From contig JADLEU010000364.1 in assembly GCA_020845955.1 (NCBI GenBank), positions 11,958-75,957 of the forward strand: DNA of 64,000 nt, read 5' to 3'. The stretch's first letter is position 1; each line of letters starts with the position of its first letter. Positions 24,499 through 26,939 of this stretch are shown here, one piece after another. The notes under the pieces are model-generated. The model worked only from the letters and a program-made list of their open reading frames with translations, did not search any database and was not told where the DNA came from. The translations under genes were made by a program, and so were the position numbers. Origin of the DNA: Anaerolineales bacterium. Its GTDB lineage: Bacteria; Chloroflexota; Anaerolineae; Anaerolineales; UBA6663.

Positions 24499-24526
24499 TT
24501 GACCGCGCCGGCCTGCCCGATATAAA
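24499..24526 (+). promoter_or_regulatory. Putative sigma70 promoter of the glmS leader (TTGACC-N16-TATAAA)
   Basis: -35 at 24499-24504 and -10 at 24521-24526, about 90 nt upstream of the ribozyme. Confidence 0.55.
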
Positions 24527-24618
24527 CTTGGGGCGCTCGCAGGAGCCACGGCGGACATCTATCCTGGGCGCCAACCGGCGCTGAAAGGAAGGGCCACTCA
24601 CACTCAACGGGGAAAGCA

Positions 24619-24823
24619 AGCGCATGGCCTGGCTGCCGCGCAATTGGGCGCCAGGTGACGAGGAGGCGGTTCCTGCCGTGGGGCAGTGCTAACTGGCAGC
24701 TGCCAGGAAAAGCGAGGTATCAGCGGAAGCCGCCGAGGGCAGCCACAGCCCTCAACTTTTCCCCCAGAGAAGCGCGCTGTACTAACCCTCCGGGCGACCG
24801 GGGACGAACGAGCGCGCAGTGGA
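24619..24823 (+). ncRNA. glmS riboswitch-ribozyme (GlcN6P-activated)
   Basis: A^GCGC cleavage motif 24619-24623; P1 24627-33/24650-56; GACGAGG 24657-63; P2 24665-71/24728-34; core GCGAGGUAUCAGCGG; P3 24735-40/24748-53; P3.1 CCAC/GUGG; P4 GCGCGC/GCGCGC; P4.1 with GCGA tetraloop; lies upstream of glmS. Confidence 0.9.
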
Positions 24824-25040
24824 ACAACCAGGGCAAGTCGGCAGCGCGCGATTTCCCGCCGGCCCAAGCGGGTCGCCGGCAGCGCGCTGGCTGCGCACCA
24901 TCCCTGGGGCAGCAGACGACAAACAATCTGATTCGCCAGGCGCGGCGGTCGTGGCAACCTACCCCAGCGCCATCGGGCGGGGGTGACCATCCAGCCGTGC
25001 GCCTGGCCCACTCTGGCGGCTTCGCCGGGAGGCTAACACC

Positions 25041-26939
<1,899 letters not shown>

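Follow-up and report, generated by a model that had tools for sequence, protein, structure and literature searches.

The glmS ribozyme, a model of RNA catalysis and an antibacterial target that is usually described as very uniform, is the only natural ribozyme known to us that uses a metabolite as its catalytic cofactor. The canonical RNA (Rfam family RF00234; Bacillus subtilis, B. anthracis and Thermoanaerobacter tengcongensis) lies in the leader of glmS and is built from P1, P2, P2.1/P2.2, P3/P3.1 and P4/P4.1, the last capped by a GNRA tetraloop and containing an A-rich internal loop, together with an A/GCG cleavage motif (the slash marks the cut) and a GACGAGG strand that holds the catalytic guanine. 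Variants from Deinococcus-Thermus with extra core stems and changed core-supporting substructures have reportedly been described by McCown, Roth and Breaker (RNA 2011). Here we analyze a glmS ribozyme in a 64,000-nucleotide (nt) stretch from an Anaerolineales bacterium (GenBank assembly GCA_020845955.1, contig JADLEU010000364.1, positions 11,958 to 75,957 of the forward strand), hereafter the window, to which all coordinates refer. The window RNA occupies the same place and shares the canonical elements listed above, P2.1 with its third pair altered, but it differs in a two-hairpin module between P2 and P2.1, in a leader helix (P0) with an enlarged junction between P3 and P4 (J3/4), in a P2.2 bulge shifted by one position, in a G at the cofactor pocket and in a covariance model score below the curated cut-off. 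As reported, the Deinococcus-Thermus variants represent the same kind of departure in another phylum. Literature searches for glmS ribozymes in Anaerolineae returned no paper, and those combining glmS ribozyme with glnA returned one unrelated review.

The ribozyme in the glmS leader

The complete ribozyme spans 24609-24822 on the forward strand and ends 218 nt upstream of the glmS open reading frame (ORF), which starts at 25041. With E-value reporting, the RF00234 model matches 24608-24827 (+) over all model positions 1-167 with 32 bits (E = 1.4e-5 over a 901-nt stretch and 2.3e-5 over the 6.06-Mb genome, where this is the sole copy). An initial annotation of the window, made from its letters without database searches, had read this RNA as a glmS ribozyme that carries a foldable insert next to its core and had named an RF00234 search as a check; the full-length match 5' of glmS bears out the identity, and the comparison with relatives (below) the insert. 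The gathering threshold of RF00234 is 37 bits, and a default Rfam scan of the window at that threshold therefore reports no glmS ribozyme.

Judged on its sequence and helices, the window RNA is a genuine glmS ribozyme-riboswitch, in which the sequence motifs and helices that define the class are present; the exceptions are the curated score and the third pair of P2.1. The A/GCG cleavage motif, whose AGCG is invariant in the seed alignment, is found together with the P2.2 pairing between the nucleotides that follow it and the P2 loop, and P2.2 is 94% paired across relatives in spite of its shifted bulge. The core strand at 24657-24663 equals the GACGAGG consensus, and its G24663 is the equivalent of the catalytic guanine (G42 in B. 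subtilis, G40 in T. tengcongensis and G33 in B. anthracis, in the numbering of PMC11602151 and PMC4274630). Compensatory changes among relatives affect 6/7 pairs of P1 and 2-3/5 pairs of P2. P3/P3.1 and P4/P4.1 are present with a GNRA loop and an A-rich internal loop that is off at 2-3 positions. Of the P2.1 pseudoknot (CGA with UCG), the C-G and G-C pairs are retained and the third pair has become A.G through G24712. The RNA is quite probably a functional member of a Chloroflexota (Anaerolineae-type) subclass of the glmS ribozyme with a conserved two-hairpin module, acting in the 5' leader of glmS.

Cleavage, cofactor dependence and transcript start of the window RNA are all predictions. By homology, abundant glucosamine-6-phosphate (GlcN6P) would bind a preformed P2.1/P2.2 pocket and serve as cofactor for a cut between A24619 and G24620, and the resulting glmS mRNA with a 5'-hydroxyl (5'-OH) end would then be degraded; the probable nuclease is either of two RNase J homologues that this genome encodes (576 and 518 bits; cut-off 400). 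Cleavage in this class yields a 2',3'-cyclic phosphate besides the 5'-OH. For B. subtilis, RNase J1 is reported to degrade the 5'-OH product (Collins et al. 2007), and the presence of two homologues makes a similar decay route available here.

The two-hairpin module and the leader helix P0

Where canonical ribozymes join the P2 5' strand to the P2.1 3' strand by a 3-nt linker, the window RNA has 36-39 nt. The linker UU (24670-24671) is followed by an extra stretch that begins with C24672, and AAAAGCGAG comes after that stretch. Alignment of relatives locates the insert between this UU and A24711-G24712-C-G, that is, between the two strands named in the initial annotation. Insert-free Chloroflexota cores lead to the same placement, because the block AAAA(G/U)CGA-N5-CAGCGGA(A/U)G-P2 aligns with them base for base; the canonical cores L195, L196 and L198 read GG-UUA-UCGAAUCAUCAGCGG or GG-UUA-UCGAAUCAU-CAGCGGAUG. 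The alignment returned by cmscan skips 45 nt after UUCCUG, which would put the insertion in the P2.1-P2.2 3'-strand loop; relatives and canonical cores rule this placement out. In the B. subtilis ribozyme, 9/9 substitutions of the corresponding linker (U50, U51, A52) retain a product yield of 0.78-0.89 (PMC11602151 dataset), so that the module sits at a tolerant site.

The module consists of two hairpins, hpA and hpB, a linker between them that contains a nearly invariant YUAA and a second linker that leads into P2.1 (24673-24711; Table 1). Among module-bearing relatives hpA is constant at 13-16 nt and forms a plain stem of 5-7 base pairs with a tetraloop, which is of the GNRA type in about half of the sequences and GUGG, GUAG, AUAG or GCAG in the window's family. 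For hpB, lengths of 12-110 nt (median 24) were seen, and the window hpB is close to the shortest form. The linker after hpA reads GGCUAA (32 sequences), UGCUAA (20), GGUUAA (10) or other variants, and that after hpB GAAAA or GAACA; both linkers are constant in length. The module may be closed by C24672-G24707, a column pair that is C-G in 67/78 sequences. Where hpB is long, as in L011, L015, L020, L022 and L023, its arms contain short tandem-like units such as GCAGATAG, CAGTCTT and GTAGTCGG, and similar units are found again 3' of these ribozymes, which looks like the expansion of a dispersed short repeat within hpB.

A lineage covariance model (R1), extending from the leader to P3, was built from 12 relatives. 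The window is among its seed sequences, and the window's R1 score of 153.6 bits is hence partly a matter of construction. Of 151 genomes sampled from the order, 131 gave R1 matches, and these come from all 18 families; almost every match spans model positions 1-150, most of them with E-values from 1e-11 to 1e-34. In the same 151 genomes RF00234 gives matches with E ≤0.01 in 109 but exceeds its cut-off in only 48, and in only 3/23 within the window's family, which agrees with the earlier expectation that covariance models would score this RNA poorly; about two thirds of the order's genomes consequently receive no Rfam glmS ribozyme annotation. Since some module-bearing members reach up to 66 bits with RF00234, such RNAs are probably already contained in the full Rfam hit lists. 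A BLAST search with the window leader against 40 related genomes aligned the ribozyme in 21/22 genomes of the same family, mainly over query positions 41-274, often with a break at the position of hpB, and left the spacer to glmS unaligned. The module is a conserved feature common to most of the order; the initial annotation had taken it to be peculiar to this RNA. A phylum-wide sample also contains it in families f23, f31, f32 and f47 outside the order, and holds canonical cores of 104-110 nt in families f26 and f41. In one family (L197) and in one Anaerolineae metagenome-assembled genome (L054) there is no P2/P2.1 module, and a hairpin insertion occupies the P2.1-P2.2 3'-strand loop instead.

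The initial annotation had also called for covariation in relatives, and this is seen. In an alignment of 78 distinct sequences fitted to the model structure, 93.3% of cells are paired and the covariation score is 0.561, compared to 0.171 for shuffled columns (0/500 shuffles reach the observed value) and at most 0.10 when partners are slid by 1-3 columns. A second model with 94 sequences repeated the picture for hpA and hpB. Two folds had been drawn for the insert, a CCUG/CAGG helix and a pair of hairpins. The hairpins stand, with changes on both sides in 5/5 pairs of each, whereas the CCUG/CAGG helix is paired in 69.7% of sequences, compared to 98% and 95% for the hairpins, and has no compensatory change; only its outer pair, C24672-G24707, is conserved. 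These data bear on the proposal of a second switch, ligand-sensing or regulatory, in the module. The initial annotation had raised a second switch as a possibility; in it, for example, an alternation between CCUG/CAGG and the two hairpins would gate folding of the core. Although the junction nucleotides UUC, YUAA and GAAAA are highly conserved beside the active site, and the window insert can be drawn in several ways with a minimum free energy (MFE) fold that differs from the two hairpins, we consider such a switch distinctly improbable: hpB is free in length and conserved only in its basal pairs, hpA is a plain stem with a tetraloop, and neither an internal loop nor a bulge was seen to be conserved in the module among relatives, a pattern of structural extension and not of an aptamer. 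In addition, the same module is present in copies that control glnA with a different expression platform, which is more in keeping with a component of the fold than with a sensor tied to one gene. Provided that the RNA is active, the module probably braces the P2-P2.1 junction or guides its folding. Its Y shape, with hpA fixed, YUAA, hpB of free length and GAAAA, would support or direct folding of the double pseudoknot with no second ligand; this reading follows from the fixed junction, the one constant and the one free-length arm, and the presence of the module whatever gene is controlled.

The second departure concerns the region upstream of the cut. Covariation shows that leader and long J3/4 are paired in a helix, P0, that spans the cleavage site and comprises 8 contiguous pairs in the window. 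Changes on both sides were found for 8/8 pairs among 94 relatives, and P0 alone has a covariation score of 0.512 (shuffled 0.236, slid 0.20-0.29). Both strands are exchanged in GCAUGG/CCAUGC (L050), GGCAAA/UUUGCC (L134), GGAAAGGU/ACCUUUCC (L151) and GACAGA/UCUGUC (L056). Duplexes between leader and J3/4 have a mean of -12.8 kcal/mol for cognate and -10.2 kcal/mol for non-cognate combinations, and 0/5000 permutations were as good. A pairing matrix with fixed anchors was smeared by purine and pyrimidine runs and was replaced by the model containing P0. Since P0 is also present in L054, which is without the two-hairpin module, the two features are separable. P0 would tether the nucleotides 5' of the scissile bond to the P3-P4 domain and keep the leader attached after cleavage.

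Table 1. Coordinates of the window ribozyme, its regulated gene and its promoter-like site, with the evidence for each feature.
Feature	Position	Strand	Evidence or remark
Promoter-like site	24499-24528	+	TTGACC 24499-24504; -10 either TATAAA 24521-24526 or TAAACT ending 24528
P0 5' strand, GGGGAAAG	24609-24616	+	3-10 nt 5' of cleavage site; pairs with 24757-24764
Predicted cleavage site, motif A/GCGC	24619/24620	+	A-1 = 24619, G1 = 24620; RF00234 alignment
P2.2 5' strand (CGC-A-UG)	24621-24626	+	Pairs with 24721-24725; helix 1, 94% paired
P1 hairpin	24627-24656	+	Stem 24627-24633 with 24650-24656; compensatory changes in 6/7 pairs
Core strand, GACGAGGA	24657-24664	+	GACGAGG 24657-24663; sequence
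P2 5' strand, GGCGG	24665-24669	+	Pairs with CCGCC 24730-24734
hpA, CUGCC-GUGG-GGCAG	24673-24686	+	Changes on both sides in 5/5 pairs, 98.4% paired
Linker UGCUAA between hpA and hpB	24687-24692	+	YUAA nearly invariant in relatives
hpB, CUGGC-AGCU-GCCAG	24693-24706	+	Changes on both sides in 5/5 pairs, 94-95% paired
Linker GAAAA	24707-24711	+	A24711 = canonical A preceding P2.1 3' strand
P2.1 3' strand, GCG (G24712-C-G24714)	24712-24714	+	Pairs with C24659-G-A24661
P2.2 3' strand	24721-24726	+	CAGCG 24721-24725 plus G24726 (= B. subtilis G67)
P3 hairpin, GAGGGC/GCCCUC	24735-24753	+	Covariation alignments
P3.1 pseudoknot	24743-24746 with 24819-24822	+	P3 loop CCAC with GUGG
Long J3/4	24754-24771	+	Contains P0 3' strand
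P0 3' strand, UUUUCCCC	24757-24764	+	Inside J3/4; covariation
P4, internal loop (IL4), P4.1 and GCGA tetraloop	24772-24817	+	P4 24772-24778 with 24811-24817; P4.1 24788-24793 with 24798-24803; Rfam alignment, relatives
glmS (glutamine-fructose-6-phosphate aminotransferase), regulated gene	25041-26939	+	632-aa ORF, start MCGIVGY, GATase and 2x SIS domains

The P2.2 register and the cofactor pocket

The core variants listed in the initial annotation (AGCGCAUGG, GCGAG, AGCGG and the long J3/4) are all present, and most of them, instead of being independent oddities, are explained by a compensatory shift in P2.2 and by J3/4 being a strand of P0. In canonical P2.2, C5 pairs with G53 and A6 is bulged (numbering of PMC7125110). 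In the window, with GCGCAUGG and CAGCGG, position 5 is a bulged A and a U6-A53 pair is formed. In window coordinates, AAGCGCAUGG begins at 24618 and CAGCGG at 24721, giving the pairs C24621-G24725, G24622-C24724, C24623-G24723, U24625-A24722 and G24626-C24721 with A24624 bulged. The shifted column pair is U-A in 59/78 sequences, and L047, L054, L146 and L169 have canonical GCGCC together with CGGCGG. In B. subtilis, G63A alone, which is the change to CAGCGG, lowers the yield to 0.28 (PMC11602151 dataset), so that the 5' change in GCGCAUGG looks compensatory. On these comparative grounds GCGCAUGG and CAGCGG together represent a register shift of P2.2 in which one strand compensates for the other, and its occurrence in Chloroflexota cores of canonical length indicates that it is unconnected with the insert.

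The P2.1 5' strand is C24659-G24660-A24661. For P3.1, loop and tail co-vary by eye (GCCAU/AUGGC in L024, GCCA/UGGC in L027), automatic detection by loop complement being noisy.

In the third P2.1 pair, G24712, a rare G within GCGAG, replaces the U that pairs with A24661 (U53 in B. subtilis, U43 in B. anthracis, U51 in T. tengcongensis; A40-U53 in B. subtilis), and this U, which normally contacts the sugar cofactor, lies in a strand described as part of the cofactor pocket (residues 43-45, PMC7125110). In the 78-sequence alignment the pair is A.G in all 22 rows of the window's family, A-U in 54 rows and C-G in one, L053, in which GACGCGG occurs with GCGAG in a compensated form. G at the pocket position recurs in family f47, there alongside an IL4 loop with canonical-looking ACAA. 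The automatic parsing of IL4 covered about half of the sequences, and no co-variation between IL4 and G24712 is claimed. Compensatory changes maintain the pairing of P1, hpB and P3 in the 22 sequences of the family that bear G24712, which indicates that the fold has been under selection since the change from U to G. G24712 would be a tolerated variant fixed in the lineage, perhaps forming an A.G pair that presents O6 where U presents O4, and it may tune the cofactor response without abolishing it.

A different possibility, which keeps the altered ligand response considered in the initial annotation for the change from U to G only, is that G24712 and UGCUAA alter cofactor affinity or specificity, giving a different response or a lower dependence on GlcN6P. 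In favor of this are the position itself, since pocket residues 43-45 include U43 (PMC7125110), which is G in the window, the loss of yield of U53G in B. subtilis, and the fixation of G in 22/22 family members with its recurrence in f47, both groups having U before GCUAA. We nevertheless regard an altered response as unlikely. The other pocket and catalytic residues that were compared are canonical (A-1, G1, C2, the C-G and G-C pairs of P2.1, GACGAGG and the G after P2.2), the gene context of glmS feedback is unchanged, and the kinetic sequencing (k-seq) data show for U53G a reduced amplitude and not a reduced rate (k_obs 0.43 per s, wild type 0.36 per s; U53C yield 0.836; PMC11602151 dataset), which points to folding and not to chemistry. 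Moreover, only 2-3 independent origins of G at the pocket were seen, and its co-occurrence with UGCUAA is therefore weak evidence.

That co-occurrence was a side observation: G at the pocket goes with U directly before GCUAA (window positions 24687 and 24712; L189-L193) in the window's family and in f47, most relatives with U at the pocket have G or A there, and L014, L047, L170 and L173 are exceptions. With so few origins we do not call it covariation. An extension of the idea, that G24712 and the remodelled module junction with its U before GCUAA together re-tune the pocket, so that affinity, analogue selectivity or cofactor dependence is altered and the module is part of the active-site architecture, appears quite unlikely to us; if it did hold, the ribozymes of the window's family and of f47 would be naturally occurring pocket variants in a class that is regarded as nearly invariant. 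A further core change is found in one genus of the window's family (L017, L018, L021, L025 and L026), where GACGAAG stands for GACGAGG; most of these RNAs also have canonical GCGCCUGG, and their hpB is about 100 nt long. The corresponding B. subtilis change, G41A, has a yield of 0.235 (PMC11602151 dataset).

Several points weigh against a functional ribozyme with a bracing module. The curated RF00234 score is not reached. The window IL4 loop (CUAACC/ACGAAC) is unlike both the canonical form and that of the nearest relatives. In B. subtilis, U53G alone lowers the yield to 0.232 from about 0.86 in the wild type (PMC11602151 dataset), and G24712 might by analogy weaken the window ribozyme if nothing in its surroundings compensates. 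Folded alone as a single sequence, the insert has an MFE structure other than the two hairpins (z = -1.98), which leaves the case for the module to comparison, and the brace role is drawn solely from the pattern of conservation. Finally, fitting the alignments to the model structure favors pairing in the pair counts, although the controls with slid partners and the variety of pair types within columns argue for a real signal. Part of this evidence would also fit an inactive, decaying glmS relic or a structured leader that does not cleave itself, as would the A.G at the P2.1 pair and the spacer of about 217 nt to the start codon, which has no significant structure. We consider a relic of this kind highly improbable, because every helix is intact, the catalytic G and the cleavage-site nucleotides are unchanged, sequence conservation across genera covers the ribozyme and stops at the spacer, and the compensatory changes that maintain P1, hpB and P3 in the window's family contradict the 'merely decaying' RNA allowed for in the initial annotation.

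If the functional reading holds, this lineage widens the sequence space of the fold by a module in a core linker, a helix between leader and ribozyme body and a tolerated G in the pocket, and its variants are natural test cases for the interplay of periphery and core during folding. For the window itself the outcome is a corrected annotation and one specific variant, G24712.

Copies linked to glnA and the sequence around the ribozyme

RNAs of the glmS type that share the module, P0, the core motifs and the P3-P4 domain are also associated with glnA in other Anaerolineales families (L162, L164-L168, L170, L172 and L173). They lie upstream of glutamine synthetase (Pfam Gln-synt_N/C) with the cut-site context AGCG(U/G/A)NUG, most of those read are followed by a terminator-like hairpin and a U-run, and most are without the leader GGAGG motif described below. 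The window's genome has no such copy. Many genomes of the order carry 2-3 copies of the expanded ribozyme, the extra ones located 5' of glutamine synthetase (also L156 and L016), and these extra copies have a leader motif CAACUGAAUAG and a GGAAGGG box complementary to J3/4. On one contig (G082:C26) two expanded copies, L169 and L170, lie about 4 kb apart on opposite strands. One is located 5' of glmS; the second is of the AGCGG type and has a glutamine synthetase motif within 1.5 kb downstream, the first long ORF there being a gene other than glnA.

The closest named homologues of the protein encoded by the regulated gene in the window are GlmS proteins of uncultured Anaerolineales and Anaerolineae (Chloroflexota), with 63-69% identity. 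Promoter prediction gave one site (0.1 expected) about 120 nt 5' of the cut site, which would place the transcript start near 24534. Of the two -10 elements in Table 1, TAAACT is the call of the prediction tool and TATAAA is our own reading; similar TATAAT boxes also lie upstream of the ribozymes of relatives.

Between promoter and cut site, a Shine-Dalgarno-like GGAGG(UG) with no start codon after it was found 18-75 nt 5' of the cut in 43/74 relatives (among them L012, L028, L044, L056, L138 and L161), compared to 3/52 control windows. The window copy is degenerate (GAAAGGAAGGG, 24583-24593). One might speculate that this motif is a 5' stabiliser like those of Bacillus mRNAs, which cleavage by the ribozyme would remove. 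Downstream, the spacer (24824-25046) has no structure beyond that of shuffled sequences (z = -0.87). Part of it, 24860-24904, recurs with 81% identity on a different contig of this genome (G000:C226:15902-15949) and with about 82% identity in a different genome of the order, and may be a small dispersed repeat.

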